Shown here in pieces: positions 1,374-20,976 of a stretch of 20,976 nt of DNA. The notes below the pieces were generated by a model. It was not told the origin of the DNA, searched no databases, and saw only the letters and a program-made list of their open reading frames with translations. The position numbers and the translations under genes were made by a program. The DNA comes from Candidatus Kuenenia stuttgartensis (GTDB lineage: Bacteria; Planctomycetota; UBA11346). The stretch is taken from contig CAMCAC010000025.1 of NCBI GenBank assembly GCA_945872305.1, positions 1-20,976 on the forward strand, in the 5' to 3' direction. Every line of letters starts with the position of its first letter. The first letter of the stretch is position 1.

Positions 1374-1379
1374 CGCCGG

Positions 1380-5545: not shown

Positions 5546-5600
5546 GGTGGGACAAGGCTAGGCAGGGATCCCGCGGTGCCAGCAGGGATCTCGGGGGCCG

Positions 5601-5620
5601 CCCCCGCCGGCGGCCGGGGG
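5601..5620. other. Short GC hairpin just past the permease stop, in the 76-bp gap before the DUF4388 gene ATG
   Basis: cccccg (5601-5606) / loop ccggcggc / cggggg (5615-5620). The adjacent direct repeat cagggatc (5574-5581 and 5583-5590) is also noted. There is no U-tract, so it may simply be an intra-operon structure. Confidence 0.2.
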
Positions 5621-5621
5621 C

Positions 5622-6818: not shown

Positions 6819-7516
6819 GGCGGCGCCCCCTCGTCACTGGCGACGAGCCCATCCGCGAGCCGGATCCGACGCGGGCAGCGGGCCGCCACCCCGGGATCGT
6901 GGGTGACGATGACGATGGTCCGGCCCTCGCGGTGCAGTTCCGCGAACAGGCCGAGGATCTCCTCGCCGGTGCGCGAATCGAGGTTGCCGGTGGGCTCGTC
7001 CGCCAGGAGCAGGGCCGGGCTGCCGGCCAGGGCCCGGGCGATGGCGACCCGCTGGCGCTGGCCGCCGCTGAGCTGGTTCGGACGGTGACGCAGGCGGTCG
7101 CCGAGCCCGACCCGGCGCAGGGCCGTCTCGGCCGCCGCCCGCGCATCGGCGCGCCGGGCGTAGCGCAGGGGCAACGCCACATTCTCCACCGCATCCAGGC
7201 GCGGGAGGAGATGAAAACTCTGGAAAATGAAGCCGATCCGCCGGTTGCGGATCGCGGCCAGGCGGTCGCCATGGATCGCGGTGATGTCCTCGCCATCCAG
7301 GCGGTAGGTCCCCGCATCCGGCTTGTCCAGGCAGCCGAGGATGTGCATCAGGGTGGACTTGCCGCTGCCGCTCGCGCCGAGGATCGCCGCCATCTCCCCG
7401 GCCCGGATGCGCACATCGACCCCGGCCAGGGCGTGCACCGTCTCGCCGCCGACGGTGTAGGTCTTGCGCAGGGCGGTGGCGTCGATGACCGGGGCGGCCC
7501 CCGCAGCGTCGCTCAT
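6809..7516 (-). CDS. ABC transporter ATP-binding protein, MacB/LolD/DevA-type nucleotide-binding domain
   Basis: 235 aa with Walker [11 protein letters not shown]-loop, ABC signature [15 protein letters not shown], Walker [13 protein letters not shown] and H-loop VTHD. The ATG at 7516 overlaps the TGA of the membrane-fusion protein gene (ATGA at 7513-7516). Confidence 0.9.
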
Positions 7517-8790
7517 AGGCCGAAATCCATCTCGTCGCGCCAGCGGATCTTGCCCGCGGGGGGCAGTTCCACGGATTCGCCGGCGTCCAGGCCGGAGAGG
7601 ATCTGCTGGCGGCGGCCGTCGGTGCCGCCGACCAGCACGGCCCGGGTCCCGGACGATGCGGCGGCGCTGGCGCTGCGCAGGACCACCTCGGTGCGGCCGT
7701 CGATCCGGCGGACGGCCTCGACCGGGATGGTGATGGCGGCGGCTTCATCAACGGTGGTGATCTCGACCCCGACGGTCATGGGCGGGCGCAGGGGCAGGTC
7801 GGATCCGGCCAGGCGGATGGTCACCGGGAAGCTGACCGATCGCCCCTCGCGCACGCCCTCGCTGGCGATGGCGGCGACCGTGCCCGAAAAGCGCCGGCCC
7901 GGGAACGCTTCGCAGGTGACCACGGTGAGCTGGCCCGGGTGGACCCGGCCCACATCGGATTCCGGCAGATCGACCTGGACCGAGAGCCGGGACAGATCCG
8001 CCAGGGCCGCCACCTGGGTGCCGCCGCCGATGGTGGTGATGCCGGAACTGACGATCTGGCCGACCTCGACCAGGACCCGGGTCACGGTGCCATCCACCGG
8101 GGCGGTGATCCGGGTCTTGGCCAGGCGCCGGCGGGCGTCGTCCAGGTCGAGTTCCCGGCTGCGCAGGTCCGCTTCCGCCAGGGCGAGTTCCGCCTGGGCG
8201 ACGGCGATGTCGGCTCCCCGCAGGGCGGCCTCGTCGATGGCCAGCCGTGCCCCGGCCAGTCCGGCGACCGCGGTGGCTTCGCCGGCGATGGCCGCGTCGG
8301 TGCTCTCGGGGGTGGTCACGCCCTGGCGGAGGAGATCGCGTTGCCGGGCGGCCCGGGTGGCGGATTCCGCAGCCCGGGCCCTGGCCGCGGCCAGTTCCGC
8401 CGCCGCCCGCTCCTGGGCCAGGGCGGTGGCCCGGGTCTCCCGGTCCAGACGCAGGCGGGCCTGGTCGAGCCGGGCCCGGGCGGCGACCACCCCGGCCTCG
8501 GCCCGGGCCACCACCCGGCGCTCGTCGTCGGGATCGAGCTGCACAAGCAGGTCCCCGGCCCGCACCGGCAATCCCGAAGCCGCCGGCACCGCCGCCACCT
8601 GGCCGCTCGCTTCCGCCTTGATCTCCACGCTCTGGGCGCTGACCACCCGGCCGCTGGCGGTGATCGTTTCGATGAAGCGTCCCTGTTCCGCCGTCGCGGT
8701 GGCCACCGGCGGGGGTGGTGGATCCCCGCATCCGGCGACCAGGACCACGGATGCCAGGAGCCAGCGCATGCGGGGAGCGTTCATGCGCAT
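7513..8790 (-). CDS. Efflux periplasmic adaptor (membrane-fusion protein), HlyD/MacA-like lipoprotein
   Basis: The ORF is open to 8859, but the plausible start is 8790 (MRMNAPRMRWLLASVVLVAGC), which gives a lipoprotein signal with an LVAGC lipobox. It has a beta-barrel/lipoyl-like N-domain (FIETITASGRVVSAQSVEIKAEASGQV), a long Ala/Arg-rich alpha-helical hairpin (~130 aa), and a C-terminal beta domain (VTRVLVEVGQIVSSG...). This is the first gene of the MFP-ATPase-permease set. Confidence 0.8.
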   Translation of the reverse strand: MRMNAPRMRWLLASVVLVAGCGDPPPPPVATATAEQGRFIETITASGRVVSAQSVEIKAEASGQVAAVPAASGLPVRAGDLLVQLDPDDERRVVARAEAGVVAARARLDQARLRLDRETRATALAQERAAAELAAARARAAESATRAARQRDLLRQGVTTPESTDAAIAGEATAVAGLAGARLAIDEAALRGADIAVAQAELALAEADLRSRELDLDDARRRLAKTRITAPVDGTVTRVLVEVGQIVSSGITTIGGGTQVAALADLSRLSVQVDLPESDVGRVHPGQLTVVTCEAFPGRRFSGTVAAIASEGVREGRSVSFPVTIRLAGSDLPLRPPMTVGVEITTVDEAAAITIPVEAVRRIDGRTEVVLRSASAAASSGTRAVLVGGTDGRRQQILSGLDAGESVELPPAGKIRWRDEMDFGL

Positions 8791-8885
8791 TCCGGACGCA
8801 CCAGCCCCCGGAAACTGACGATCAAACAGGTATAAGGATATCCGGGCGTTGTTATCCATTATGTTCCGGGCACTGTGGCGGAGCC
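8791..8885. promoter_or_regulatory. Divergent promoter/operator region between the MFP operon (minus) and the NMO-family gene (plus). It is a local low-GC island with a palindromic element.
   Basis: The only AT-rich stretch in this part of the window is ctgacgatcaaacaggtataaggatatccgggcgttgttatccattatgttccggg. It contains the palindrome GGATATCC (8836-8843), GGATA (8836-8840) inverted to TATCC (8853-8857), and a repeated tccggg (8841-8846, 8865-8870). It also carries a TATAAG -10-like hexamer. Confidence 0.35.
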
Positions 8886-10310
8886 ATGCCTGACCCCGCC
8901 CGCCGCCCGCTCCCCCGCATCATCCAAGGAGGCATGGGTGCCGCCGTCTCCACGTGGCGCCTGGCCCGGGCGGTCTCCGCCCAGGGCGGCCTGGGCGTGG
9001 TGAGTGGCACCGCCATCGAGCGGGTGCTGGCCTGCCGGCTCCAGGAAGGTGATCCGGGCGGGATCATGCGTGCCGCCATCGCCCGCTTCCCGGACCAGAC
9101 CATGGCCCGGTCCGTGGTCGGCCGCTGGTACCGCCCCGACGGCCTGCCGGCGCCGGGTGTGTATGCCCCGGTCCCCATGTTTTCGGAACGCTCACCGGCG
9201 GACCTCATCCATCTCGCCGTCGTCGCGGCCTTCGTCGAGATCACCCTGGCCCGCCAGGACGATGCAGGGGTTCCCCATGGCGGTCAGGTGGGCATCAACC
9301 TGCTGGAAAAGATCCAGCCGCCGACCCTGCCGCTCCTGCATGGAGCCATGCTCGCCGGAGTGGACTGGGTGCTCATGGGCGCGGGAATCCCGCGCGAGAT
9401 CCCAGGCCACCTGGACCGCCTCGCCAGGGGCGAACCCACCGCCCTGAAACTGGCGGTGGCGGACGGTCCGGCCATCGAACTGCCCTACGATCCAGCCATC
9501 GTCCAGCCGCTGGCACCGCTCGCCCGTCCGGGCTTCCTGGCGGTGGTGGCCAGCGATGTCATGGCGGCTTCCCTGGCCCGCTCCGGCGGGGTGGATGGCT
9601 TCGTCGTCGAAGGCCCCACCGCCGGCGGCCACAACGCCCCCCCACGGGGCGCCGGTCGGACCCCCGTCGCCAGGCCGGTGTACGGCGAGCGCGACCGGGC
9701 CGATCTCGCCCGCATGCGCAGCTTCGGCGTGCCGTTCTGGCTGGCCGGCGGGCAGGCTGGACCGGGCGCCCTGGCGGCTGCCCTGGAGGCCGGGGCCGCG
9801 GGTGTGCAGATCGGCACCGCCTTCGCCTTCTGCCGTGAATCCGGACTCGATGGGGCCGTGCGCCGCCGGATCCTCGATGGTGTGCGGGCCGGCACGGTCC
9901 AGGTGATCACCGATGGGCGCGCCTCGCCGACCGGATTCCCGTTCAAGACCATGGACATACCCGGCAGCGAAGGCGGCCGGCCGGCCGACGCCCGGGAGCG
10001 TGGGGCCTGCATGATGGGATACCTGCGCAGCCCCTACCGGCGGGCGGATGGCGGCCTGGGCTGGCGGTGTCCCGCGGAGCCTGAAACCCAATGGTCGGCA
10101 AAGGGCGGAGACAGCGCCGAGTGCGCCGACCGCCGTTGCCTGTGCCAGGGACTGATGTCCGCAGCGGGCCATCCGCACGTCGGCGAAGAGGGCCTGGAGT
10201 GGCCCCTGATCACCGCTGGCGACGATCTGGAGCCGGTGCGCCGCTGCCTGGACGGACGCGAGGACTACAGTGCCGCCGACGTGATGACCCAGGTGGCCGT
10301 CGCACCCTGA
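8886..10310 (+). CDS. FMN-dependent nitronate monooxygenase / 2-nitropropane dioxygenase (FabK-like enoyl reductase) family oxidoreductase with a Cys-containing C-terminal extension
   Basis: Start chosen at the MPDPARRPLPRIIQGGMGAAVSTWRLARAVSAQGGLGVVSG match to the NMO family N-terminal motif (PIIQgGMa.vs...LAaAVS.AGGLG). The ORF is open upstream to 8715, but that extension lacks homology and overlaps the divergent gene. The ~475-aa product is longer than typical ~330-360-aa NMOs. The tail from ~residue 380 has Cys pairs (GACMMGY...WRCPAEP...AECADRRCLCQG). Confidence 0.65.
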   Translation: MPDPARRPLPRIIQGGMGAAVSTWRLARAVSAQGGLGVVSGTAIERVLACRLQEGDPGGIMRAAIARFPDQTMARSVVGRWYRPDGLPAPGVYAPVPMFSERSPADLIHLAVVAAFVEITLARQDDAGVPHGGQVGINLLEKIQPPTLPLLHGAMLAGVDWVLMGAGIPREIPGHLDRLARGEPTALKLAVADGPAIELPYDPAIVQPLAPLARPGFLAVVASDVMAASLARSGGVDGFVVEGPTAGGHNAPPRGAGRTPVARPVYGERDRADLARMRSFGVPFWLAGGQAGPGALAAALEAGAAGVQIGTAFAFCRESGLDGAVRRRILDGVRAGTVQVITDGRASPTGFPFKTMDIPGSEGGRPADARERGACMMGYLRSPYRRADGGLGWRCPAEPETQWSAKGGDSAECADRRCLCQGLMSAAGHPHVGEEGLEWPLITAGDDLEPVRRCLDGREDYSAADVMTQVAVAP

Positions 10311-10448
10311 CGGCAGGCGGATCCACCCACCGTCGTGCTGCCGGCCCGCCCTGCGGATCCGGGGTGCGGCTGGTTCCGCAGGAAGGCGGGTCGCGCGGTC
10401 ACCCAGCGCGATCCGGGTGATCCGTCGCGTGGGCCCAGCTCACCGCAG

Positions 10449-10473
10449 CGACACGGCCCGCAGAGCCGTGTCG
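10449..10473. terminator. GC-rich hairpin between convergent genes (candidate bidirectional intrinsic terminator, no U-tract)
   Basis: cgacacggc (10449-10457) / loop ccgcaga / gccgtgtcg (10465-10473) forms a perfect 9-bp stem. It lies 139 nt after the NMO-family stop (10310) and 27 nt before the stop (10500) of the minus-strand secreted-protein gene. Confidence 0.3.
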
Positions 10474-10499
10474 GCAGCGTGGGCGGCACGAGCCGCCGC

Positions 10500-13400
10500 T
10501 CACTTCCCTGCGGCGAGCAGTTTCCGCATGAAGGTCAGTTCCTCGCGGAAGGCCGCATCGTCCGGGAACGCCTTGACCGCCCGTTCGGCGGCCGTCAGAG
10601 CCCGCTCGTTCGCCCCGACCAGGACGGCCCGCCAGGCGATGAGGAACCACTTCGGCTTGTAGTTCAGCTCCGCCTGCCACACGTCGAGCACGGTGGTGAA
10701 CCATGCGGCCGAGGCCTGGGGGGCGCGGGCGCCGAGGGTGTCCGCGGTCATGTCGCGCAGACGCTTGTCGTTGAGGTCCTTCACCCGGCGCAGGCAGGCC
10801 TGGAGCAGCGCCTTGTCCTCGGTCAGCAGGGCGAGATCGAGGCGGCTCATGTGACGCTGGATCTCGATGCTGGAATCGGTCAGGCCCAGGGCATCGGCCC
10901 GGGTGAAGGCCTCCTCGACCCTGGCGGCGGCGGCGCGCACCTTGCCCAGATCCGCGGTGCCGGCCTTGATCGCGTCGTCGTTGTAGGCGCGCAGCTGCTG
11001 GCCGAACCAGTAGGGGACCGACAGGCGGATCCACGACAGGTCGCGGGCCTGTTGCGCCTCGCCGGGCTGGCGGCGGGAATGGTCGACCTTGCCCGCGGCG
11101 GGCCAGGGGGCCGCGGCGACCGCGGTGGCGACCGCCTCCTCGCCACCCATGGAGCGGGCGAGATGCCGGGCCAGGGCGGCGTAGCGGAAATGGATGTCGC
11201 CCGGGTCTTCGACATCGCTGAAGGCGATCTTGTCGATCCAGGTGGCGGCCCGTTCCTCGGCGGCGCGCACCCCGGCGTCCGAGCGTTCGTGCTCCGGCGC
11301 CTTCTCGACCAGATCCAGGGACAGATCGGCATAGCGGGCGAGCATCTGGCGGAGCAGCATCAGGCCGCCGGTGTCGTTCACCCAGCGCTCGCGGAAGCGG
11401 GCGTTGCCGAGCATGGCCACGACCTTGCCCATCTGCTCATCCAGCGGTGCCGCGGTCTGCTCCAGGATCGCCGCCGCCGAGGCGGACAGGCCGAGCTGGG
11501 ACGCCTGGCCGGCAAGATCGAAACCGTACTCGACCATGCCCTGGCCCATCGCCGCGGCGAGTTCCGGATCCTGGAGGCGGGCGATCTCCTCGCCGATCAG
11601 GGTGCGCGCGCGGGCGTCGTCCTTGGCCTCGCGCAGAAGCCCGATCAGTTCAACGCGGCGCAGGGCCAGGGATTGCGCATCGTCGATCCCGGTCATCGCC
11701 TTTTCGAAATATTCCACGGCCTTGCCGTATTGGCCGGTGAAATGGTACAGGCCGCTCAGCTCCGTGATGTTGGCGGGATCGAGATCGCCGCCGTCGACCA
11801 GCTTCTGCATCTTGGCGATGCCGCGGGCATAGGTCTGGTACTGCCAGTCGCGTTGCACATCGATCATGATCCGGGCGTATTCGGGCTCGGCGAAGATCCG
11901 CCAGCCGAGCCGCCAGGCCCCGCGGGTGTTCTCGCCGGAGAAGCGCAGGAGCAGGCCCAGCCCGTTGGGGTCGAACGGCGCGTTGGGATTGAAGTGGGTG
12001 AAGGCGGCGCGCAGGGCCTCGGGCAGGGTCTCGCGCACGAAGTGCAGGGTCGGACCGGTCTGCATCACGGTCACCGACCAGCCCTCGGCGGCCTTGGTGG
12101 CGGTCGCGAAGGCGGTGTGGCTGGGCAGGGTGAGCAGGTGGCCGAGCCGGCCCTGCCGCTCGGCCACGGTCTGGTACAGTTCCCCGAGGTCGTCGCAGTC
12201 GCCGCGGCAGGCGCCGAGGGTGTTGCTGGTCAGGATCTGCTCGGTGGTCTGGTGGATGTCGCTCTTGACCGTCTTGTTGCCGGCCAGGAGCGGGAAGCGC
12301 GGATCCGGGCTGTCGTAGGTGTAGCGGAAGAAATATTGGCCGAGCAGGTCCAGCCGACCCAGGCTGTCGAGGATGCGCGCGCTGTCGGCGAGGAACCGCC
12401 CCGCCTCGGCGGAGGTCCCGTCGCGCATGGCGCGCAGGGTCCCGGTCTCGACCGCCAGGAAGAGGGGATCGCCGGCGGGGCTGGCGACCAGGATGTGCGG
12501 CGGGTACAGGTCCGGCAGATCGGTGTCGTCGGGACGGGGTACCGCCTTGCGCCAGGTCTTGGCGTCGACCGTCAGCCCCTTGTCCCGGGTCCACGAGGCC
12601 AGGCGTGTGCCGCTGCGATCGAAGACCCGGGCGGCCACCGCCTTGGCGGCGTCGCGGTCGGGGTCCGATCCGGCGGGCAGATCCACGGTCAGGACCAGAT
12701 TGAGCGGGGAATTGTAGAAAGGCTCCGGATGGGCGATCCGGTAGGCGGTGCGGGAGGGGGCGTTCAGCACCCATACCCCGCCGCCGAAGGCGTCACGACG
12801 GTCCTCGATGGTGATCTTGCCGTCTGCGCTCGCGTGGCCCGACGCGGGGCCGCGGCGCATCGCCGCGGCCACCGCCGCTTCGACCGCTGCGGTCTCGGCC
12901 CCGGCCTGGGGCAGGGTGGCAAGCCAGCCGCCGCGGACGAGGCGGCGGGCCGCCGCCGGGGTGTATTCGTCCAACGGCCTGGCCCGGTCCTTTTCCGGCA
13001 GCAGGTCGAGGGTGGCGACGATCGCGTCCCGGGTCCGCCGTTCGATGGTTCCCGCCGCCACATCCTTGTCGATACGCGCGGTGAGCGCGGCCACCGCCTT
13101 GGCCACCGCGGCGAGGTCCTTGCCGCGGTCGGTTTCGGCATTGGGCATGGCCCGGAGCAGGCCCTCCTCGATGGCGAGCCATTCCTTGCTCGCCAGGGTC
13201 AGCCCGGCCAGGGGGGACATCTGCAGGGCGGCGGTGCCGCTCGCCTTGCCGGCCTCGGCCTGGGCGACCAGCCGGGCCAGGGCCTTTGCGGCGGCGGCGT
13301 CCTGGGCCAGGGCCTTGTTCACCGTCACCGGGCCGACCGGGGTCGCCACGGTCAGGTGCTCCCCGGGCACCCAGGGATAGCCGCCCCAGGTCCAACCGCT

Positions 13401-13541
13401 CTCGGATGTGACCAGGGCCTGGGCCAGGGCGGCGGGCGGCTTGACCGGGGTCGCACCCTGGTCGGCGGTGGACGGCTCGGCACCGGGCAGGGCGCAGGCG
13501 ATGGCGAGCAGGGCGGGGACGAGACGGTGCATGGTGGGCAT
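10500..13541 (-). CDS. Large secreted hypothetical protein (~1013 aa) with a signal peptide, a central region containing a possible transglutaminase-like Cys/His core, and a TPR-like helical C-terminal region
   Basis: The ORF is open to 13739, but MPTMHRLVPALLAIACALPGAEP at 13541 is a classical signal peptide. Amino-acid composition is diverse (K, F, Y, W present), unlike the Gly/Arg-rich antisense frame. The central segment GACRGDCDDLGELYQTVAERQGRLGHLLTLPSHTAF loosely fits the transglutaminase-like core. The C-terminal 450 aa are alpha-helical repeat-like. Confidence 0.55.
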   Translation of the reverse strand: MPTMHRLVPALLAIACALPGAEPSTADQGATPVKPPAALAQALVTSESGWTWGGYPWVPGEHLTVATPVGPVTVNKALAQDAAAAKALARLVAQAEAGKASGTAALQMSPLAGLTLASKEWLAIEEGLLRAMPNAETDRGKDLAAVAKAVAALTARIDKDVAAGTIERRTRDAIVATLDLLPEKDRARPLDEYTPAAARRLVRGGWLATLPQAGAETAAVEAAVAAAMRRGPASGHASADGKITIEDRRDAFGGGVWVLNAPSRTAYRIAHPEPFYNSPLNLVLTVDLPAGSDPDRDAAKAVAARVFDRSGTRLASWTRDKGLTVDAKTWRKAVPRPDDTDLPDLYPPHILVASPAGDPLFLAVETGTLRAMRDGTSAEAGRFLADSARILDSLGRLDLLGQYFFRYTYDSPDPRFPLLAGNKTVKSDIHQTTEQILTSNTLGACRGDCDDLGELYQTVAERQGRLGHLLTLPSHTAFATATKAAEGWSVTVMQTGPTLHFVRETLPEALRAAFTHFNPNAPFDPNGLGLLLRFSGENTRGAWRLGWRIFAEPEYARIMIDVQRDWQYQTYARGIAKMQKLVDGGDLDPANITELSGLYHFTGQYGKAVEYFEKAMTGIDDAQSLALRRVELIGLLREAKDDARARTLIGEEIARLQDPELAAAMGQGMVEYGFDLAGQASQLGLSASAAAILEQTAAPLDEQMGKVVAMLGNARFRERWVNDTGGLMLLRQMLARYADLSLDLVEKAPEHERSDAGVRAAEERAATWIDKIAFSDVEDPGDIHFRYAALARHLARSMGGEEAVATAVAAAPWPAAGKVDHSRRQPGEAQQARDLSWIRLSVPYWFGQQLRAYNDDAIKAGTADLGKVRAAAARVEEAFTRADALGLTDSSIEIQRHMSRLDLALLTEDKALLQACLRRVKDLNDKRLRDMTADTLGARAPQASAAWFTTVLDVWQAELNYKPKWFLIAWRAVLVGANERALTAAERAVKAFPDDAAFREELTFMRKLLAAGK

Positions 13542-13671
13542 AGTGTCGACCTGGGCGCGGCGTCGATAGCCCATCCCTGCACGCCTGCGTGTGGTCCGGC
13601 AGACAGTTCCCCGCGGCCGCTGCGTCGCGGTGCCGGCTGGACGCCGCCCGGTGGGCAGGAGGATCCCGCCC
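13542..13671. promoter_or_regulatory. Divergent intergenic region (secreted-protein gene on minus, nadE on plus) containing the nadE ribosome-binding site
   Basis: AGGAGG at 13656-13661 lies 10 nt upstream of the nadE ATG (13672). This is the presumed location of divergent promoters. Confidence 0.5.
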
Positions 13672-15264
13672 ATGCGCATCGTCGTCGGCCACGCGGATCT
13701 GCGGCTCGGGGACCTGGAGGGGGCCCTGGCGGCCATCACGGTCCAGGTCGGTGCGGCGGTCGCCGCCGGGGCCGAGCTCCTGCTGCTTCCGGAATTGGCG
13801 GCCTTCGGCGGCTATCCGCCCCGGGACCTCCTCGACCGTCCGTGGTTGGTGGAACGCCAGTGGGCGGGCCTGCGCGCCGCCAGCGCCGCCTGGCCGTTGC
13901 CGGTGGCGGTGGGCGCGGTGGAGCCCCTGCCCGGTCCCGGTCCCGCCCTGGCCAATGTGCTGGCGGTGTTCGACGGCGGCCGGCTGCTCGGCCTGCACCG
14001 CAAATGCCGGCTCCCGTCCAACGATGTCTTCGACGAGCCGCGCCACTTCCGTCCCGGGGACGGCGGTACCGTGGTCGAGGTCCGCGGCCGGCGGGTCGGC
14101 CTGAGCGTGTGCGAGGACATCTGGCCGCCGGAGACGACCGGCCGGGCCTATCCGGTGGATCCCCTCGCGGACCTCGCCGGGCGCTGCGAGATCGTCCTCA
14201 ACGCCTCCGCCAGCCCCTACCACCTGGGCAAGGGCGTCGCCCGCCGCGCGGTGGTCGCCGCCGCCGCCCGCCGGGCCGGGGTGCCGGTGGTGTGGTGCAA
14301 TCTGCTCGGCGCCCACGACGAACTCCTGTTCGACGGCGGCGCCATCCGCGCCGAGCCCGACGGCCGCATCACGGAGTCGCCGCGCTGGTGCGAGGGCGTC
14401 AACACCGTGGACCGCATCCCCGAGGAACCGGCGGCGGAACCCGACCTGTGGACCGCCCTGGTCGCTGGCATCCGCGGCTATTGCCGGCGCACCCGCCAGG
14501 AGCGGGTCGTGCTCGGCCTGAGCGGCGGCATCGACAGCGCCCTCGTGGCGGCCCTGGCGGTGGATGCCCTCGGCGCCGACCGGGTCACCGGCATCCTCAT
14601 GCCCGGTCCTTACTCCAGCCGGGGCAGCGTGGTCGATGCCATGGATCTGGCGGAACGGCTCGGCATCCGCACCCACCAGTGCATGATCACCCGGGCCTGG
14701 GAAGTGCTGCTCGGCGAGCTGGATCCCCTGTGCCCCCAGGGTCCCGCGGATCTCATGACGCAGAACCTCCAGAGCCGGCTGCGCGGCGCCCTGGTCATGG
14801 CGGCGGCGAACCAGCTCGGCGCCATGGCCCTGACCACCGGCAATAAGAGCGAGCTGGCCTGCGGCTACTGCACCATCTACGGCGACATGAACGGCGGCCT
14901 GGCGCCGATCGGCGACCTGTTCAAGACCGCGGTGTACCGACTGTCCCGTTGGGCCAACCGCAACGGCGAGCGCATCCCGGTCCCGACCATCGAGAAGCCG
15001 CCGTCCGCCGAACTGCGACCGGACCAGACCGACCAGGACAGCCTGCCGCCCTACGACCAGCTCGACCGCATCCTGGAGGCCTACATCGAGGCCGGCGAGG
15101 ACCCCGCCGCCATCGCCCGCCGCGAGGACCCCGCCGTCGTCGCCCAGGTCGTCCGCCTGGTCGAGATCAGCGAGTTCAAGCGCCGCCAGGCCGCACCGGT
15201 CCTGCGGGTCAGCCGCAAGGCCTTCGGCATGGGCCGCCGCATGCCGGTGGCGCGGGCGTTCTGA
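13672..15264 (+). CDS. nadE: Glutamine-dependent NAD+ synthetase (N-terminal CN-hydrolase/nitrilase domain plus C-terminal NAD synthase PP-loop domain)
   Basis: ATG at 13672 is preceded by AGGAGG (13656-13661). The nitrilase catalytic triad context is present (LLLPELA..., LHRKCRLP, GLSVCEDIW). The C-domain PP-loop reads VLGLSGGIDSALVAALAVDALG, with NadE motifs (TGNKSELACGYCTIYGDMNGGLAPIGDLFKT). The product is 530 aa. Confidence 0.9.
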   Translation: MRIVVGHADLRLGDLEGALAAITVQVGAAVAAGAELLLLPELAAFGGYPPRDLLDRPWLVERQWAGLRAASAAWPLPVAVGAVEPLPGPGPALANVLAVFDGGRLLGLHRKCRLPSNDVFDEPRHFRPGDGGTVVEVRGRRVGLSVCEDIWPPETTGRAYPVDPLADLAGRCEIVLNASASPYHLGKGVARRAVVAAAARRAGVPVVWCNLLGAHDELLFDGGAIRAEPDGRITESPRWCEGVNTVDRIPEEPAAEPDLWTALVAGIRGYCRRTRQERVVLGLSGGIDSALVAALAVDALGADRVTGILMPGPYSSRGSVVDAMDLAERLGIRTHQCMITRAWEVLLGELDPLCPQGPADLMTQNLQSRLRGALVMAAANQLGAMALTTGNKSELACGYCTIYGDMNGGLAPIGDLFKTAVYRLSRWANRNGERIPVPTIEKPPSAELRPDQTDQDSLPPYDQLDRILEAYIEAGEDPAAIARREDPAVVAQVVRLVEISEFKRRQAAPVLRVSRKAFGMGRRMPVARAF

Positions 15265-15331
15265 AGGGGGCGGTCCCGCCGTCCGGATTCGTGGACGCCG
15301 CCCTGGACAGGCGCGGACCGGCCCCGCCGGG

Positions 15332-15363
15332 CATGCATGGAAACCGTCTGGGATTCATGCATT
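15332..15363. promoter_or_regulatory. Paired CATGCAT palindromic motifs upstream of yqiJ (candidate operator/promoter element)
   Basis: CATGCATG (15332-15339) and CATGCAT (15356-15362) are spaced 24 bp apart in gcatgcatggaaaccgtctgggattcatgcatttt. This is locally AT-richer than the surroundings and lies ~75-105 bp upstream of the yqiJ ATG (15438). Confidence 0.3.
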
Positions 15364-15437
15364 TTCCGTGATCCGGCGGCACCGGGTCGGGGGCGTCTTG
15401 CGGCCGGGATGACCGACAGGACCATGGGACGACGGAC

Positions 15438-16208
15438 ATGGATCACCTCCTCACCGCCCTCAGCGCCTTCCCGACCGTGGTGTTCACCACCCTGCTTGCC
15501 GCAGCGGTGGTGTACTGGCTGCTGGTCATCCTCGGGGCGCTGGACCTGGACCTGTTCCACCTGGGCGATGCGGACGCCGGTGATCATGATCCGCACGCCG
15601 GCCACAACGGGTTCGCCATCCTGGAGTTCCTCCGGGTGGGGCAGGTGCCGATCACGGTGATCTCGAGCCTGTTCATCGTCTTCGCCTGGCTCGCCAGTTT
15701 CGCCGCCACGATGTTCCTTCGGCCGGTGGTGCCGGAGTGGTCGTGGTGGCTGTTCGGCGGGGCGACCCTGGTGGGGGCCATCGTGGTCGCCTACCTGGGC
15801 ACCGGCTTCGTCAGCGCGGGTCTTGCCCGGGTATTCTCCATCCGCGGGACGGTCACCGCCGCGAGCCTGGTCGGCCGGGTCGTGGAGGTCACCTCGTCCA
15901 CGGTGGACGCCCGGTATGGCACCGCCCGTCACGACCGGTTGACCGGTGAGGACATCCTCCTCAACGTGGTCTGCGATCCCGCCCACACCCTGAAGCGCGG
16001 CGACCAGGCGGTCATCATGGAATACGATGCCGGCAAGGGTGTGTACCTGATCGCGCCCCTGCCCCACACCCGGGAGGGCTTCGCCGTCGAGGCGGAGCCG
16101 CGCCCGGCCCTGCCGCCCCCGGCGGGCGCCGCCGAGCCCGTCGCCCCGCCCGTCGACACTCCCGCCCCGGCCGCCGCCCCCGGCCGCCGCGACACCCTCG
16201 CCCAATGA
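15438..16208 (+). CDS. yqiJ: YqiJ-like inner-membrane protein (DUF1449) with a C-terminal NfeD-like OB-fold
   Basis: 256 aa. It has N-terminal TM helices with an acidic/His-rich loop (LDLDLFHLGDADAGDHDPHAGH), further TM helices, and a C-terminal beta-rich domain (GRVVEVTSSTVDARYGTARHDRLTGEDILLNVVCDPAHTLKRGDQAVIMEYDAGKGVYLIA) that matches the layout of E. coli YqiJ. The stop overlaps the flotillin gene ATG (ATGA at 16205-16208). Confidence 0.75.
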   Translation: MDHLLTALSAFPTVVFTTLLAAAVVYWLLVILGALDLDLFHLGDADAGDHDPHAGHNGFAILEFLRVGQVPITVISSLFIVFAWLASFAATMFLRPVVPEWSWWLFGGATLVGAIVVAYLGTGFVSAGLARVFSIRGTVTAASLVGRVVEVTSSTVDARYGTARHDRLTGEDILLNVVCDPAHTLKRGDQAVIMEYDAGKGVYLIAPLPHTREGFAVEAEPRPALPPPAGAAEPVAPPVDTPAPAAAPGRRDTLAQ

Positions 16209-18490
16209 CCACCGGAGATCCCATGCTGCCCCGCCTGCTCCCCGTCCCCGTCCTGCTGGTCCTGTCGGCCGGCGTCACCGTCTTCGCCGAGGACGCCGCC
16301 GCCGGCGGCTCCCGCGACGGGTGGCTCTACATCCTCGTTGGTGGGGGTGTCCTCGTCCTCCTGGTGCTGTTCGTCGCCGCGGTGATCAAGGCCTTCTACC
16401 GCATGGTCGACCAGGGCCAGGTGCTGATCATCAACAAGCTGACCAGCGGCGAGCCGGCGGTGAGCTTCACCGGCGCCCTGGTCCTGCCGATCGTCAACCG
16501 CGCCGAGACCATGGACATCTCGGTGAAGACCATCGAGGTGGACCGCCAGGGCACCAACGGCCTGATCTGCCGCGACAACATCCGGGCCGACATCAAGGTC
16601 ACCTTCTTCGTCCGGGTCAACAAGACCCACGAGGACGTGGTCCGGGTGGCGAGCACCGTCGGCGTGGCCCGGGCCTCGGACCGCAAGACCCTGGAGGACC
16701 TGTTCCAGGCGAAGTTCTCGGAAGCCCTCAAGACCGTCGGCAAGCGCCTGGACTTCATCCAACTCTACAACGAGCGGGATCAGTTCAAAGAGGAGATCAT
16801 CAAGGTGATCGGCCGCGATCTGAACGGTTACTGCCTGGAGGACGTTGCGATCGACTACCTGGAGCAGACCCCGCTCAAGCTGCTCGACCCGGACAACATC
16901 CTCGATGCCGAAGGTCGCAAGAAGATCATCGAACTGACCGCGTCCCAGCGGATGAAGGCCAACGAGATCGAGCGCGACGCCCAGAAGATCATCAAGAAGC
17001 AGGACGTGGAGGCCCGCGAGGCGATCCTCGCCCTTGAGCGCCAGCAGGCCGAGGCCGAGGCCAAGCAGGCCCGGGAGATCGGCACCGCCCAGGCCCGGGA
17101 ATCCGCGGAGAAGACCAAGGTCGAGGCCGAGGAGCACCGCCGGTCCGAGGAGACCCGCATCCAGGTCCAGCAGGAGTTGGAGGTGAAGCGGCAGATGGCC
17201 CAGCGCGAGATCCAGGTCGCCGAGAAGAACCGCGAGGGCGCGGTCATGGTCGAGAACGAGCGCATCCAGAAGGAGCGCATGCTGGAGCAGGTCGCCCGCG
17301 AGCGTGCGGTCGAACTGTCGGGCATCGAGCGCGAGCGGGTCATCGCCCAGGAGCGCAAGATCATCGCCGAGGTGATCCGCGAGCGGGTCGCCGTCGAGCG
17401 CACCGTGGCCGAGGAAGAAGAGCGCATCAAGACCGTCCGGGTGGTCATGGAGGCCCAGCGGAACAAGGACGCCGCCCTGATCGCCGCCGAGCAGGAGGCC
17501 GAGCAGGTCCGCATCAAGGAAGTGAAGCTCGCCGAGGCCGCCGCCACCGCCGCGACGCACCACGCCAAGGAGAAGGTCACCAAGGCCGAGGCCGAGCAGC
17601 TCGCCGCCGAGAAGGAGACCCTGGCGGCGATCCGCCGGGCCGAAGGCGAGCAGGCCAAGGCCGCCGCCCAGGGCTTGGCCGCCGCCAAGGTCAAGGAGGC
17701 CGACGCGGTCGCCGCCGAGAAGCAGGGCACCGTCGAGGCCCGGGTGATGGAGGCCAAGGCCGAAGCGGAGCGCAAGATGGGCATGGCCCAGGCCTCCGTC
17801 CACCTGGCGGAGCGCGAGGCCGAAGCCGCCGGCGCCGAGAAGATCGGCACCGTCGAGGCCCGGGTGATGGAGGCCAAGGCCGAGGCGGAGAAGAAGCGCG
17901 GCATGGCCCAGGTCGCGGTCAAGCAGGCCGAGGCCGACGCGGTCGAGCGCATGGGCGAGGCCGACGCGAGCGCGGTGGAGAACAAGATGGTGGCCGAGTC
18001 CAAGGGTCTCGCCGAGAAGGCCGGGGCCATGGCCAAGCTCACCGATGCCACCCGTGGGCACGAGGAGTTCCGGCTCCGCCTGGAGCAGGAGTCGGCGATC
18101 CGCAAGGCGGCCATCGAAGCCGAGGTCCAGATCGCCGGCACCCGCGCCGAGATCCTGGGCAAGAGCCTGGGCAACGCCAAGTTCGAGATCGTCGGCGGCG
18201 ACGGGGCGTTCTTCGACCGCTTCGTCGGTGCGGTCACCGACGGCAAGCGGGTCGATGCCACCATCGACCACAGCCACGTCCTCCAGACCGTGGCCAAGGA
18301 GTACCTCGCCGACGGCCGCAGCCTGCCGGACGACATCAAGGAGATCCTCTCCGGCATCACCAGCCAGGATCTCGCCAACCTCGGCATCGCCGGGGTCCTG
18401 GCCAAGGTCACCGCCGGCAAGGACCCGGTGAAGGTGAAGGCCCTGACGGACGCGGCGCGCAAGCTCGGATTGATCACGGAGCCGACGTGA
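16205..18490 (+). CDS. yqiK: Flotillin-like SPFH/band-7 protein (YqiK/FloT family) with an expanded Glu/Ala-rich coiled coil
   Basis: 761 aa. It has an N-terminal TM segment and an SPFH domain with direct resemblance to E. coli YqiK (DNIRADIKVTFFVRVNKT ~ DRMRVDVVVAFFVRVKPS; DPDNILDAEGRKKIIELT ~ NPNNAFDAEGLTKLTQET). A long EA-repeat coiled coil follows (residues ~240-640), then a flotillin C-terminal region. An alternative start lies at 16223 (MLPRLLPVPVLL). Confidence 0.85.
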   Translation: MTTGDPMLPRLLPVPVLLVLSAGVTVFAEDAAAGGSRDGWLYILVGGGVLVLLVLFVAAVIKAFYRMVDQGQVLIINKLTSGEPAVSFTGALVLPIVNRAETMDISVKTIEVDRQGTNGLICRDNIRADIKVTFFVRVNKTHEDVVRVASTVGVARASDRKTLEDLFQAKFSEALKTVGKRLDFIQLYNERDQFKEEIIKVIGRDLNGYCLEDVAIDYLEQTPLKLLDPDNILDAEGRKKIIELTASQRMKANEIERDAQKIIKKQDVEAREAILALERQQAEAEAKQAREIGTAQARESAEKTKVEAEEHRRSEETRIQVQQELEVKRQMAQREIQVAEKNREGAVMVENERIQKERMLEQVARERAVELSGIERERVIAQERKIIAEVIRERVAVERTVAEEEERIKTVRVVMEAQRNKDAALIAAEQEAEQVRIKEVKLAEAAATAATHHAKEKVTKAEAEQLAAEKETLAAIRRAEGEQAKAAAQGLAAAKVKEADAVAAEKQGTVEARVMEAKAEAERKMGMAQASVHLAEREAEAAGAEKIGTVEARVMEAKAEAEKKRGMAQVAVKQAEADAVERMGEADASAVENKMVAESKGLAEKAGAMAKLTDATRGHEEFRLRLEQESAIRKAAIEAEVQIAGTRAEILGKSLGNAKFEIVGGDGAFFDRFVGAVTDGKRVDATIDHSHVLQTVAKEYLADGRSLPDDIKEILSGITSQDLANLGIAGVLAKVTAGKDPVKVKALTDAARKLGLITEPT
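17714..17912 (+). repeat. Intragenic tandem duplication (two ~79-bp copies, period 120 bp, ~88% identical) encoding a 40-aa coiled-coil repeat in the flotillin gene
   Basis: 17714-17792 (gccgagaagcagggcaccgtcgaggcccgggtgatggaggccaaggccgaagcggagcgcaagatgggcatggcccagg) versus 17834-17912 (gccgagaagatcggcaccgtcgaggcccgggtgatggaggccaaggccgaggcggagaagaagcgcggcatggcccagg). Protein copies: AEKQGTVEARVMEAKAEAERKMGMAQ / AEKIGTVEARVMEAKAEAEKKRGMAQ. Confidence 0.85.
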
Positions 18491-18497
18491 ACGTCGG
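18482..18497. other. Perfect palindrome CCGACGT-GA-ACGTCGG spanning the flotillin stop codon
   Basis: ccgacgt (18482-18488), ga, acgtcgg (18491-18497). The central TGA is the yqiK stop. It could form a 6-bp GC stem with a TGAA tetraloop and lies immediately 5' of the G-rich heptad array. Confidence 0.5.
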
Positions 18498-18682
18498 GGT
18501 TCCGGGTTTGGGGTTTCGGGTTTCGGGACGGTGGGTTCCGGGTTTCTGGAGAGCGATGAGATGAACGCCATGGCAGCGGAAACTCTGTGGACCCTGTGCA
18601 TTCGCAGGTCACTTCCGCACCTCCGTCCCTCCCTCCCGAAACCCGAAACCCGAAACCCGAAACCCAGGTTCCCGAACCCACC
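18497..18682. repeat. Inverted arrays of GGGTTTC-type heptads flanking an ~80-nt spacer. The left arm is G-rich on the + strand (G3N4 x5) and the right arm is C-rich on the + strand (C3N4 x5). This gives a potential long stem-loop or paired G-quadruplex / i-motif elements.
   Basis: Left arm 18497-18549: gggttccgggtttggggtttcgggtttcgggacggtgggttccgggtttctgg. Right arm 18631-18682: ccctcccgaaacccgaaacccgaaacccgaaacccaggttcccgaacccacc, largely the reverse complement of the left arm (gggtttcgggtttcggg / cccgaaacccgaaaccc; ggtgggttccggg / cccgaacccacc). It sits in the 190-bp gap between the flotillin stop (18490) and the ATG of the next gene (18683). Confidence 0.8.
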
Positions 18683-20976
18683 ATGACGCTCGATGCAGGA
18701 ACTTTCGACGTTGTCCGCGCCCGGCTCGACGAGCAGGGCAAGGCTCTGGGCGGGCTGGCGGAGCGGCTGAACGCCCGGCGGCTGGAGCTGTTCGGGGGCG
18801 AGAGCACCCGGCTGCTCGGCAGCGCCCGGGTGCGCACCGAGCACAACGCGGTGCCCCGGGACATCGTCAATGTCGGCGACCGCTTCCTGCTCGGCTACCA
18901 GGTGTTCCTCGGGCTGAAGGCGCAGATGGCGCCGGGCGACGTGTTCACCGAGCTGCGCGACGACGGGCAGGGGGTGGTGAATCTGGATCCGGAGCATCCG
19001 CCGCGGCTGCTCGGGGATCCGGCATTCACCAAGGACTTCGCCGAGGTCTTCCAGTACTACAAGGACGCCCGGCTGCTCCATTTCCGGCGCACCGACCGGC
19101 TGCTGTTGGCGGCGTTCCAGACCGGCTCCCGGCTCACCGACCTGCGGGTGCTGCGCTGGGCCCTGGACGGGCGCGGTGCGGCGGAGGGGCTGCGCTACCT
19201 CGACAACCGCGGCGACCGCGACTACGTGTTCCCCGCGGCCCAGGATTTCACCTGGACCCGGGCGACCCGGGACATGCATGTCCAGGGCGCCCATCCGCAC
19301 ATCGCCATCGACGACGAGATCTTCGTCGAATGCATCAACGGCGACCTGACCATCAAGGTCGAGAACAACACGACCTCCGGCGCCGGCATCTTCAGCGATC
19401 CGGTCGACGATCCGACCCAGGGCCTGGACGACGCCGAGATCTGGTTCGCGGTCCTGCCCGCCTGCATCCTGCTCAAGGTGCGGCCGTACCGGGAGCACGG
19501 CTGGCGCCACATCGTCTTCAACCGCGCCACCCGCGAGGCGGTGCGCATCGACGCGATTGGACTGGCGTGCCAGCAGCTCCCCGAAGGCCACGGGCTGGTC
19601 TTCCCCGGCGGCTATTATCTGTCCACCGGCGTGCACAAACTGTTCCCCATCGACGCCGCGGGGATGGAGTTCAAGCGCGCCATCCGCGCCCCGAACGGCG
19701 AGGATGTGGCCTATGTCTTCTACCGCCGGGACCAGGGCACCTACCAGCTCCTCCAGTACAGCCTGATCACCCGGGAGATGGCGAGCCCGGTGGTGTGCTC
19801 GTCCTACTGCCGCCTGCCGGACGGCCGGCTGGTGGTGCTGCGGGCGGAGCCGGAGCCGACCCGGGTCCACACGCTCCAGATCTGGCAGACGCCCTTCCTC
19901 GACGAGGAAGTGGCGGCGGCCCGGGCCCCGACCGCCGCCGGGGAACTCGCCAACCTGGGCAACCGGGAGCTGGTGCGGGCGGTGTCGGACTGCCTGCATC
20001 TCTGCCGCCTGATCGGCGCCCAGCGCCCGACCCGGCAGGTGTACGAGGAGTTGCTCAAGGCCATCGGCAAGGTGGTGGACACCTATCCGTGGCTCGCCGG
20101 GACCGAGGGTTTCGGCATCCGCGCCGCCCTGGACGCCCTGCGCGGCACCGCCGAGCGGGTCATCGACGAGTTCGAGAAGGTCGTCGCCCTCACCGCCCAG
20201 GCGGAGGCCAAGCTGGTCGCCGCCGAAAAGCAGGCGGACGCCCTGGCCAAGGCCGCCGCCCTGGCGGACCGGGCCCGGATCGAGGGCTTCGTCGCGCCCT
20301 TGAGCGAGGTGCGCTCCGCCCGCGGCCACGCGGAGACCCTGAAATCCGTCCGCTACATGGACCTCGCCCGGCTCGCCCGGCTCGATGCGCGGCTCGCCCG
20401 GCAGGGCGAGGAATTGGCCAAGGGCGCCGTCGAGCTGCTGCGCAAGCCCGAGGCCCTGGCCGCCTGGAAGGCGGAGATCGCCGCGGTCGAAGCGAGCGCC
20501 GCCGGCCTGGCCGCGGTGGCCGAGGCCCGCCCGGTCTTGGAACGGCTCGACGCCGCCGCCGCCGGCCTGGACCAGCTCGTGGGGCTGGTCAACGCCCTGG
20601 AATTCGCCGAGGCCGCCGCCCGGACCGAGGTCCTGGAGCGCATCGGCGAGACCTACGCCAGCGTCAACCGCGCCCGGGCGGTGCTCGCCGGCCGGCGCCA
20701 GGAGCTCGGCGCCGCCGAGGCCGCCGCGGACTTCGCGGTCCAGGACCGTCTGCTCGCCCAGGCCCTGGCCAATGCCGTGGCCCTGTGCGACAGCCCCGAG
20801 CGCTGCGACGAGTTCACCGCCAAGCTGCTGGTCCAGGTCGAGGAGTTGGAGGGCCGTTTCGCGGACTTCGACCGCTACGCCTCGGAACTGGCCGAACGCC
20901 GGGTCGCGGTCACCGAGCAGCTCGCGTCCCGGCGCCAGGCGCTGGTCGACGAGCGCAGCCGCAAGGCGGACGGCTG
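18683..20976 (+). CDS. Large uncharacterised protein (at least 764 aa, 3' end outside the window) with a globular N-terminal region (~500 aa) and an Ala/Glu/Leu-rich coiled-coil C-terminal region
   Basis: This ORF is not in the supplied track because it has no stop codon in the window. It reads uninterrupted from the ATG at 18683 to 20976 with high GC3 codon usage. No signal peptide or P-loop is recognisable. The strongly recognisable flotillin gene makes the antisense 1466-aa frame an artefact. It is co-oriented with, and 190 bp downstream of, yqiJ-yqiK. Confidence 0.6.
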   Translation, partial: MTLDAGTFDVVRARLDEQGKALGGLAERLNARRLELFGGESTRLLGSARVRTEHNAVPRDIVNVGDRFLLGYQVFLGLKAQMAPGDVFTELRDDGQGVVNLDPEHPPRLLGDPAFTKDFAEVFQYYKDARLLHFRRTDRLLLAAFQTGSRLTDLRVLRWALDGRGAAEGLRYLDNRGDRDYVFPAAQDFTWTRATRDMHVQGAHPHIAIDDEIFVECINGDLTIKVENNTTSGAGIFSDPVDDPTQGLDDAEIWFAVLPACILLKVRPYREHGWRHIVFNRATREAVRIDAIGLACQQLPEGHGLVFPGGYYLSTGVHKLFPIDAAGMEFKRAIRAPNGEDVAYVFYRRDQGTYQLLQYSLITREMASPVVCSSYCRLPDGRLVVLRAEPEPTRVHTLQIWQTPFLDEEVAAARAPTAAGELANLGNRELVRAVSDCLHLCRLIGAQRPTRQVYEELLKAIGKVVDTYPWLAGTEGFGIRAALDALRGTAERVIDEFEKVVALTAQAEAKLVAAEKQADALAKAAALADRARIEGFVAPLSEVRSARGHAETLKSVRYMDLARLARLDARLARQGEELAKGAVELLRKPEALAAWKAEIAAVEASAAGLAAVAEARPVLERLDAAAAGLDQLVGLVNALEFAEAAARTEVLERIGETYASVNRARAVLAGRRQELGAAEAAADFAVQDRLLAQALANAVALCDSPERCDEFTAKLLVQVEELEGRFADFDRYASELAERRVAVTEQLASRRQALVDERSRKADG

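Follow-up and report, generated by a model that had tools for sequence, protein, structure and literature searches.

The contig CAMCAC010000025.1 of Candidatus Kuenenia stuttgartensis, all 20,976 nt of which are called the window here, has between a gene for an SPFH/flotillin (YqiK-like) protein and the gene for a giant AAA-type ATPase a spacer with two arrays of heptamers, GGGTTTC and CCCGAAA, that are complementary to each other and by which the spacer RNA is predicted to fold into one long and very stable hairpin. In the same spacer of related Planctomycetota, the traits that recur, as far as the sequences tell, are the short-period tandem repetition and the complementarity of the two arms, which are built from unrelated units of 7–9 nt, with the sequence itself not recurring. 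By this comparison the property that the orthologous spacers share is the hairpin and not a G-quadruplex (G4), because the orthologous units are without G3 tracts. We tentatively favour the composite reading that the element is an intercistronic RNA stem-loop which would decouple the flotillin from the ATPase and which would be built by replication slippage together with template switching, a reading that we hold to be well possible though somewhat short of probable.

The convergent arrays and their predicted fold

The spacer extends over 192 nt between the TGA of the flotillin gene (18488–18490) and the ATG of the ATPase gene (18683–18685), with the latter start confirmed by alignment with 8 orthologues; the original prediction had seen the same spacer and had put its length at 190 bp. 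The inverted GGGTTTC and CCCGAAA arrays that it described are found at the places it gave by Tandem Repeats Finder (TRF), by 14-mer matching and by the inverted-repeat search. TRF reports GGGTTTC in 4.4 copies at 18497–18527 with 87% matches, the general unit being GGGTTYN, and CCCGAAA in 4.4 copies at 18635–18665 with 100% matches. The G-rich array lies on the + strand at 18497–18549 and on the − strand at 18627–18681, that is, in convergent orientation. The 14-mer GGGTTTCGGGTTTC has, with at most 2 mismatches, 7 matches in the window, all of them in the spacer, where 0.09 is expected from shuffles. The arms 18497–18535 and 18627–18665, of 39 nt and 90% complementary, make up the best inverted repeat of the 21-kb window, in which no second copy of the element was found by TRF and motif matching.

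It is noted that several dimensions given before are to be refined. The 5′ array begins 7 nt past the TGA, while the C array, which had been said to end 1 nt before the ATG, does so only with its degenerate extension to about 18681, the perfect array stopping 17 nt short of the ATG; the extension (18666–18681) has two possible pairing partners, the base of the 5′ arm and the final codons of the flotillin. The gap of about 80 nt between the arrays holds when it is counted from the second G-rich block to 18627 (77 nt) and not when it is counted between the perfect arrays (107 nt). In place of five GGG tracts on the + strand, there are seven G3+ tracts, with loops of 2–4 nt, and the 3′ arm contains nine C3 tracts. 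The perfect palindrome over the flotillin stop codon is, as had been claimed, read directly in the sequence; it forms in the minimum-free-energy fold and is statistically unremarkable alone.

As RNA, the window spacer is predicted to form one interrupted stem of about 45–50 bp with a branched top, at −108.5 kcal/mol and a z-score of −5.2, with 0 of 200 shuffles being as stable, which is in line with the imperfect stem-loop of about 50 bp proposed earlier. The predicted stem spans from about 7 nt past the flotillin stop to 2–17 nt before the ATPase start. A cruciform in the duplex DNA is unlikely with a centre of about 90–110 nt.

An assembly artefact of a low-complexity repeat, which the original prediction had named as a possible objection, is unlikely, as is a fold-back: both coding flanks are intact, their synteny with the homologues is kept, and the arms are imperfect. 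Moreover, the arrays are identical in two pairs of related loci that were fetched from different sources, L017/L050 and L047/L048, in each case over the shared part (L048 ends inside the array). Within these two pairs no variation in repeat number was seen, the arrays lying outside open reading frames (ORFs).

Three other accounts of the spacer were tried and rejected. The 51-aa ORF at 18531–18686 is spurious, its translation being partly encoded by the low-complexity repeat and its frame being different from that of the ATPase gene. The spacer as a remnant of one of the small genes that relatives have at this place (79 aa, or MamF/MmsF-like of 119 aa) gave nothing below E = 0.1 by tblastn against nine spacers. 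CRISPR and iterons do not fit in unit size and layout.

The same spacer in related Planctomycetota

The window has a GC content of about 70%, and its closest protein relatives all come from metagenome-assembled genomes (MAGs) of uncultured Planctomycetota. Every relative retrieved keeps the order of the three genes, for a protein of 238–256 aa, the flotillin and the DUF3686 ATPase. Between the latter two genes only the spacer is present in the window, in L001, in L008 and in others, while an additional 79-aa gene without Pfam family is present in L005 (3449–3688), L006 and L016 (about 2574–2813) and an additional gene for a MamF/MmsF-like membrane protein of 119–120 aa in L007 (12125–12484), L014 and L049 (3148–3510).

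Beyond the coding flanks, L009 and L012 are the only genomes whose spacers can be aligned with each other, and the array pairs that they contain are those listed in Table 1. An outer stem GGTTCC...CGAACC is common to the spacers of the window, L008 and L012. The folds of the spacers have z-scores of −8.9 in L008, −7.1 in L011, −7.1 in L021, −3.9 in L012 and −3.4 in L022, the last being a plain perfect hairpin. In 10 of the 12 array pairs the 5′ arm has a positive GC skew, i.e., is G-rich, and the 3′ arm is C-rich. Note that this convergent orientation is uninformative on which strand matters, because it reads the same on both strands.

Further repeats were observed in the related loci. The hairpin element of about 115 nt occurs once in L012 (5967–6086) and twice in tandem in L009 (958–1188), and therefore the elements can also duplicate as units, besides growing by slippage of the heptamers. 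In L016, three tandem composite units of about 60 nt, containing AGCTTWG heptamers and GCAGAAC, follow the flotillin stop (2386–2538) and are complementary to the CTCAAAG array of 4 copies just before the ATPase ATG (3007–3036), so that a long-range pairing is in principle allowed, by which the GTTCGCC hairpin and the 79-aa gene would be looped out. L015 has an array (GCGCA)x10.2 of a pentanucleotide at 174–224. In the more distant L018–L020, among which L019 and L020 are titled Kuenenia, the spacer is 1.1–1.3 kb long and is filled by tandem units each with two hairpins (CCCGGGGTTGAAACCCCGGG and GCGTCCCTACGGGACGC), located at 9545–9947 in L019 with a period of 72 nt, 5.6 copies and alternating linkers, at about 9480–9980 in L018 and at about 9660–9960 in L020. 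This filling looks like a mosaic of the type of repetitive extragenic palindromic (REP) sequences and bacterial interspersed mosaic elements (BIMEs), and not like CRISPR.

Based on these data, the interpretation that a G4 is the functional structure, either as an RNA G4 past the flotillin stop or as a DNA G4 of the template strand at the ATPase start, modulating transcription or translation, can be assessed. The tracts counted above give the canonical G3N1-7 motif on both strands, and G4Hunter gives +1.80 at 18496 and −1.72 at 18627, so that this part of the original prediction stands; many other segments of the GC-rich window also exceed an absolute G4Hunter score of 1.5. Heptamers of the GGGAATC type form K+-dependent G4s in vitro, with a preference for four units (PMC4692102). 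When the G4 energies are enabled for the full spacer, the duplex stem of −108.5 kcal/mol is kept and the G4 is absent from the minimum-free-energy fold, while for a transcript ending before the C array the G4 enters that fold, with −59.9 versus −56.5 kcal/mol, a margin of 3.4 kcal/mol. A G4 may thus form transiently during transcription. It would not be a property shared by the family, where the window array is the only one among the orthologous arrays with at least four G3 tracts, and the units GTTCGCC, GTTCGGY, CGCCAAGG, CCAACCA, GCCTCCA, ACGGAGG and GTCGCGGK are incapable of three-tetrad G4s. We therefore consider a functional G4 improbable, with the hairpin winning the fold.

The arrays also recur outside this spacer. 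The comparison was made on about 219 kb of non-redundant loci with about 51 gaps of at least 60 nt, the gene calling being crude and the genomes phylogenetically related. By rough counts, among the target spacers that reach 60 nt, 7–9 of about 11 have inverted pairs of the array type, versus 3–4 of the roughly 40 gaps elsewhere. The independence of the units between genomes shows that simple inheritance does not account for the arrays. On the other side, the unit is genome-specific, because that of the target spacer is used again at other intergenic sites in L016 and L050: in L016 the target spacer (2847–2993, GTTCGCC) and the pair at 8258–8392 (GTTCGGC) have the common unit GTTCGSC, and in L050 arrays of the CCAACCA type are located at 6727–6806 and 12176–12211. 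From these rough enrichment figures, it appears that the genome determines the choice of the unit and the locus the presence of a hairpin. This gives indirect support to the genome-specific repeat family proposed in the original prediction, of which the 21-kb window itself offers no second copy.

Two explanations take the recurrence of the unit as their starting point. The first is that of a miniature mobile element, akin to a MITE (a miniature transposable element with inverted repeats) or to the REP-doublet hairpins called REPINs, being genome-specific and non-autonomous, with array-type terminal inverted repeats, and inserted in the spacer. It would be consistent with several intergenic sites per genome having the unit (L016, L050) and with the whole element being doubled in tandem in L009 when compared with L012. 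In L016, however, the two copies built from the same unit have the arms in common and centres that are unrelated by eye, so that there is no conserved core; no direct duplication flanks 18497–18681, so that the window element shows no evident target-site duplication; the element is a single copy in the window; its units are non-palindromic 7-nt repeats without GTAG or CGTC head; and neither a transposase nor a REP-associated tyrosine transposase (RAYT) is among the Pfam-annotated genes of the loci with gene tables, with no transposase among the Pfam matches of the window genes. Insertion of such an element has thus only a slim chance of being the explanation. In the second, a nucleic-acid-binding protein specific to the genome would recognise the arrays, with one heptamer per site and the two arrays bound in opposite orientation. 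A dispersed, genome-specific unit in the relatives and typically four to five units per array would agree with this, and a regulator-binding role has been proposed for the TAACTGA heptamers of Beggiatoaceae (PMC4679880). Against it, there is no candidate protein and no unit conserved across genomes, the 7-nt spacing would by our reasoning put successive sites on different faces of the B-DNA, and the complementarity of the arms, which is the most constant feature, is not required. We regard this explanation as highly improbable.

Arrays of (GGGTTTC)3 or longer were also observed in 22 viral contigs of IMG/VR with GC contents of 0.31–0.72, mostly as single arrays without a partner. In L028, L036 and L039 the layout is stop-array...CCCGAAACCC-ATG; in L028 (4008–4080) and L036 (1499–1571) an array after the stop codon is followed by CCCCCGAAACCC just before the next ATG, and in L039 (1288–1375), L034 (845–872) and L045 (4794–4821) a CCCGAAA array is directly upstream of a start codon.

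Table 1. Features of the flotillin–ATPase locus in the window and array pairs in related loci.
Locus	Feature	Position	Strand	Basis or remark
Window	First gene of the three-gene operon, 256 aa	15438–16208	+	ORF
Window	Upstream gene, SPFH/flotillin (YqiK-like) protein, 761 aa	16205–18490	+	ORF; TGA stop 18488–18490
Window	Small perfect palindrome CCGACG-TGAA-CGTCGG (CCGACGTGAACGTCGG), enclosing the flotillin stop	18482–18497	+	Read directly
Window	G/T-rich 5′ arm, GGGTTCC GGGTTTG GGGTTTC GGGTTTC GGG	18497–18527	+	TRF, period 7
Window	Second short G-rich block, GGGTTCC GGGTTTC TGG, about 2 units	18533–18549	+	Direct-repeat families; one-mismatch match 18533–18546
Window	Non-repetitive centre, branched apical region of the fold	18550–18626	+	Fold; not conserved in relatives
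Window	C/A-rich 3′ arm, CCCTCCCTCCC then (CCCGAAA)x4.4	18627–18665	+	TRF, inverted repeat, G4Hunter
Window	Degenerate extension of the C-rich arm, AGGTTCCCGAACCCAC, last base 1 nt from the ATG	18666–18681	+	Inverted repeats; folds with and without flanks
Window	Downstream gene for the giant AAA-type ATPase (DUF3686 + DUF7902), 764 codons of its 5′ part, open at the window end	18683–20976	+	Pfam, translation
L001	Target spacer: GGGAGGGC...GCCCTCCC			
L008 (= L013)	Target spacer: CGCCAAGG x3 + CCTTGGCG x3			Within outer stem GGTTCC...GAACC
L010 (= L016)	Target spacer: GTTCGCC x4.6 + CGCCGAA x4.4, about 84 nt apart			Plus CTCAAAG x4
L011	Target spacer: GTTCGGY x3.4 + RCCGAAC x4			5-nt loop
L012 and L009	Target spacers: ACGGAGG-type units versus CCTCCGT			
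L017 (= L050)	Target spacer: CCAACCA x5.1 versus short GGTGGGTGGTG			
L021	Target spacer: GTCGCGGK x3.6 + GACCCCGY x5.5			T-rich tail
L047 (= L048)	Target spacer: GCCTCCA x4.7 versus single CTGGAGG directly past the stop			Array ends 4 nt from the ATG
L016	Non-target pair: GTTCGGC x4.6 / AACGCCG x4.6	8258–8392		Where the ATPase gene and its neighbour converge
L018	Non-target pair: GCCAAGGC / CTTGGCGC	3270–3362		Co-directional genes on either side
L022	Non-target pair: GTTGRTG / CATCAAC	3292–3350		3′ region, followed by a separate terminator-like hairpin
L050	GTGGTRAG / CCAACCA x4.1 hairpin, 12-nt loop	6727–6806		Flanks AAAAAC...GTTTTT; downstream of FGE-sulfatase gene
L050	(AACCATG)x4.6 pair, divergent region	1703–1835		Adjoins Omp85 gene start; AACCATG array 1796–1827

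Concerning the genes at the locus, homologues of the flotillin are at most 77% identical and without exception from MAGs of Planctomycetota, and no exact match to the protein is recorded; the names YqiK and flotillin are those of the sources, and some homologues have Band_7 (PF01145). A tandem duplication of 120 nt inside the flotillin gene (17638–17912, about 2 copies, 74–85% matches) was observed, and it probably explains the length of 761 aa versus about 684–717 aa in the closest full-length homologues. The ATPase gene matches PF12458 (E 2.4e-173) and PF25472; in the relatives the full length of the protein is about 1731–1767 aa, and the N-terminus is 82% identical to that of the best relative in the metagenome and genome scans. 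The 256-aa first gene of the operon matched no Pfam family in the Pfam search, and genes of 238–256 aa are in the equivalent position in L001, L005, L007, L008, L047, L049, L050 and L051. By Pfam, the upstream neighbourhood (1–15264) contains a pilin-like protein with N-methylation motif, a protein of 1199 aa with DUF4388, TPR and PQQ propeller, an ABC exporter of the MacB type with an HlyD adaptor, a protein resembling nitronate monooxygenase, a TPR protein and NadE, and none of its genes is obviously linked to the flotillin operon.

A possible role of the stem and the alternatives

Since a stem between two genes calls to mind a terminator or attenuator limiting the read-through from flotillin to ATPase, the known signals are considered here. 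A very stable stem directly past the stop codon would agree with such a role, as would the T-rich tail in L021 and the member at 6727–6806 in L050, which is flanked by A5 and T5 and has the form of a bidirectional intrinsic terminator as read from its sequence. The scan for sigma-70-like promoters and intrinsic terminators over 15000–19500, however, gave nothing inside the spacer, and therefore a classical attenuator, as the original prediction had suggested, is not indicated. While an intrinsic terminator has a short GC-rich stem, a loop of 3–8 nt and a U-run, the window stem is followed by AGGTTCCCGAACCCACCATG with no T-run and has an apical region of about 80–90 nt. Moreover, canonical terminators of short stem and T-run exist in the clade, in L001, L005 and L008 on the sucD side and at 2949–2990 in L012, and the heptamer hairpin of L022 has a separate terminator-like hairpin behind it. 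Termination is thus an improbable function of the window element, much as the G4 is. It is also noted that a short hairpin with TTTCT is conserved between sucD and the first operon gene (L001 9171–9216, L005 493–540, L008 5443–5490), and that the Rfam 15 search of 18000–19200 gave as best matches only eukaryotic miRNA and snoRNA models, with E of at least 1.5 and far below the gathering scores.

In the reading that we tentatively favour, the three genes would be co-transcribed and the spacer would be part of the polycistronic mRNA. Co-transcription is argued for by L015, because the flotillin stop and the ATPase start overlap there (TGATATG). The synteny of the three genes in all the relatives and the lack of promoter-like or terminator-like sites in the scanned spacer are in favour of an operon as well. 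The stem would shield the upstream flotillin segment from 3′–5′ exonucleases and, because it is a near-perfect duplex of more than 20 bp, would be a substrate of RNase III, so that the flotillin and ATPase segments of the mRNA would acquire different stabilities, while the initiation region of the ATPase would lie directly against a rigid, very stable helix. The net outcome would be more flotillin than ATPase, and an excess of flotillin would, by our reasoning, suit an oligomeric scaffold protein that is paired with an enzyme of 1,700 aa. As to the origin of the element, the arrays would arise from replication slippage, which favours 7-nt units, and their complementarity would be upheld by quasipalindrome correction, i.e., by intrastrand template switching from one arm to the other. 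Slippage together with template switching would explain that the unit changes between genomes with the pairing being retained.

A number of points weigh against this reading. The co-transcription, the processing and the effect on the protein ratio are all steps that we infer. The z-scores of the spacer folds are non-significant in L001, L017 and L023, with L023 having no hairpin, and the element is dispensed with in L015, where the genes overlap, in L046 with a spacer of 36 nt and in L051 with a spacer of 6 nt. No excess of G.U pairs was found on the sense strand, and in stability the antisense fold about matches the sense fold or surpasses it; therefore nothing specifically indicates selection on the sense RNA, and a function at the RNA level is plausible, not demonstrated by the sequences. 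Kindred elements are present between convergent genes (L016), in a divergent region (L050) and as a hairpin like a terminator with T-run (L050), and therefore no single operon-internal role can be expected for the class as a whole. Finally, the Xanthomonas class of heptamer repeats that is compared below was given no settled function in its description (PMC4692102).

Several of these points are those that would be expected if the element were a neutral by-product of mutation, i.e., if an ancestral short hairpin had been expanded by slippage and made symmetrical by template switching and were merely tolerated. The complete turnover of the unit in spacers that cannot be aligned, the dispensability in several orthologues and the lack of a G.U bias specific to either strand would all be consistent with this. 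So would the expansion of a single arm in L017/L050 (CCAACCA x5 versus GGTGGGTGGTG) and in L047 (GCCTCCA x4.7 versus one CTGGAGG), the outer stem GGTTCC...CGAACC that the window has in common with L008 and L012 and that suggests expansion in place, and the slippage account of heptamer abundance as far as it is relayed in PMC4679880. It would, however, leave aside that the elements are strongly concentrated at the flotillin–ATPase spacer compared with other gaps, that they are consistently positioned by stop and start and consistently oriented (the G/T-rich arm being 5′ in 10 of the 12 pairs), as in Xanthomonas, and that a different class of hairpin repeats fills the spacer in the distant L018–L020. 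We consider neutrality the main rival explanation and one to be taken seriously, if a rather unlikely one.

Of like weight, hence to be entertained with some doubt, is the idea that an undescribed sequence-specific process writes or homogenises genome-specific arrays of 7–9 nt at many sites, with selection keeping those hairpins that bridge or decouple stop and start codons. If this is true, candidate writers would be an enzyme acting in trans, a mobile unit of very small size, or repeat dynamics coupled to RNase III and transcription as in the hmw genes of Haemophilus influenzae.

Whichever of these explanations holds, the locus bears on a wider question. Convergent heptamer pairs are abundant in some large bacterial genomes, with no function assigned in the literature covered here. 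At the orthologous site the conserved feature is the complementarity of the arms and not the G tracts, and this therefore weakens the G4 interpretation that lies behind the description of heptamer pairs. A genome-specific unit at a conserved site separates how arrays arise from why they are kept, and the operon of flotillin and DUF3686 ATPase is a defined, widely conserved locus for testing the role of repeat pairs.

Comparison with known systems

REP sequences, BIMEs and REPINs are dispersed, genome-specific extragenic hairpins, often arranged as inverted doublets, which between co-transcribed genes can stabilise the upstream mRNA. Their units are imperfect palindromes of 20–40 nt, of which many have GTAG or CGTC as a head, and RAYT transposases are associated with them. 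An intercistronic REP between malE and malF of Escherichia coli was reportedly studied by Newbury et al. in 1987, and REP sequences are reported to govern the ratio of the subunits there. By contrast, the window arms are non-palindromic tandem arrays of 7 nt with neither head, the cores are not conserved and no RAYT is among the Pfam-annotated genes.

Among heptamer repeats, the short tandemly repeated repetitive (STRR) sequences of cyanobacteria are said to have been described by Mazel et al. in 1990. In Beggiatoaceae, TAACTGA heptamers are located immediately upstream of start codons, where MacGregor 2015 proposed regulator binding for them, and of the 170 sets in the Maribeggiatoa genome one is an indirect repeat (PMC4679880). 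Both systems are similar to the window element in being genome-specific tandem arrays of heptanucleotides, intergenic and near start codons; they differ in that they are nearly always single direct arrays and not complementary pairs forming hairpins. The original prediction took repeats of this kind to be telomere-like and rare between bacterial genes. This is not consistent with the account of Mrazek et al. 2007, as relayed in PMC4679880, that heptanucleotides are the most abundant class of long simple sequence repeats in many large bacterial genomes, with slippage being proposed, nor with the catalogue of convergent G-rich pairs in Xanthomonas (PMC4692102).

With respect to the hairpin, a comparable system with a heptanucleotide array is hmw of H. 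influenzae (Rapun-Araiz et al. 2025). Upstream of hmw1A, the transcribed (ATCTTTC)n forms one arm of a long hairpin, cleavage of which by RNase III changes the expression, and the change in repeat number needs the hairpin, RNase III and transcription (PMC12721329). As is predicted for the window, a tandem heptanucleotide array thus makes up one side of a long hairpin that lies just upstream of a gene, and in hmw the hairpin is what functions. The other arm in hmw is, however, a non-repetitive G-rich region, and the setting is the phase-variable 5′ untranslated region of a surface adhesin in a host-adapted pathogen, whereas that in the window is an intercistronic spacer. For the proposed decoupling, the counterpart is the cip-cel operon of Clostridium cellulolyticum (Xu et al. 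2015), where intercistronic stem-loops set the stoichiometry of the subunits and the folding energy correlates with the ratio of the transcripts (PMC4423207). Both systems have a stem-loop, predicted in the case of the window, at the 3′ end of the upstream cistron, which in cip-cel is the more highly expressed one, and there the products are subunits of a complex. The cip-cel stem-loops are of unique sequence and their effect was shown by experiments, whereas the window element consists of tandem arrays and is known from sequence alone.

The closest system overall is the class of Rehm et al. 2015, with GGGAATC in Xanthomonas and GGGGA(C/T)T in Nostoc. In Xanthomonas, X. campestris has 186 and X. 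axonopodis 183 arrays of the GGGAATC type, with about 4 units per array, mostly between co-directional genes and at a mean of 28 nt from the ORF on the 5′ side; they lie at most 50 bp after a stop codon (coding strand) or at most 50 bp before a start codon (non-coding strand), and 70 convergent pairs in X. campestris and 75 in X. axonopodis are able to form stem-loops (PMC4692102). Most of these heptamer repeats are transcribed, and between both species the single or paired type is usually kept while length and sequence vary (PMC4692102). The window element is similar to this class in its heptamers with G3 tracts, its about 4 units, its intergenic location and its convergent arrays near stop and start; it differs in belonging to Planctomycetota and in having the unit GGGTTTC. 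Having every sequence feature of the class, it is by this measure a convergent pair of G-rich heptamers of the type of Rehm et al., in a phylum and with a unit that are new to the class. The arrays of its relatives are mostly without G tracts, which makes the class observed here broader than that of G4-forming repeats.

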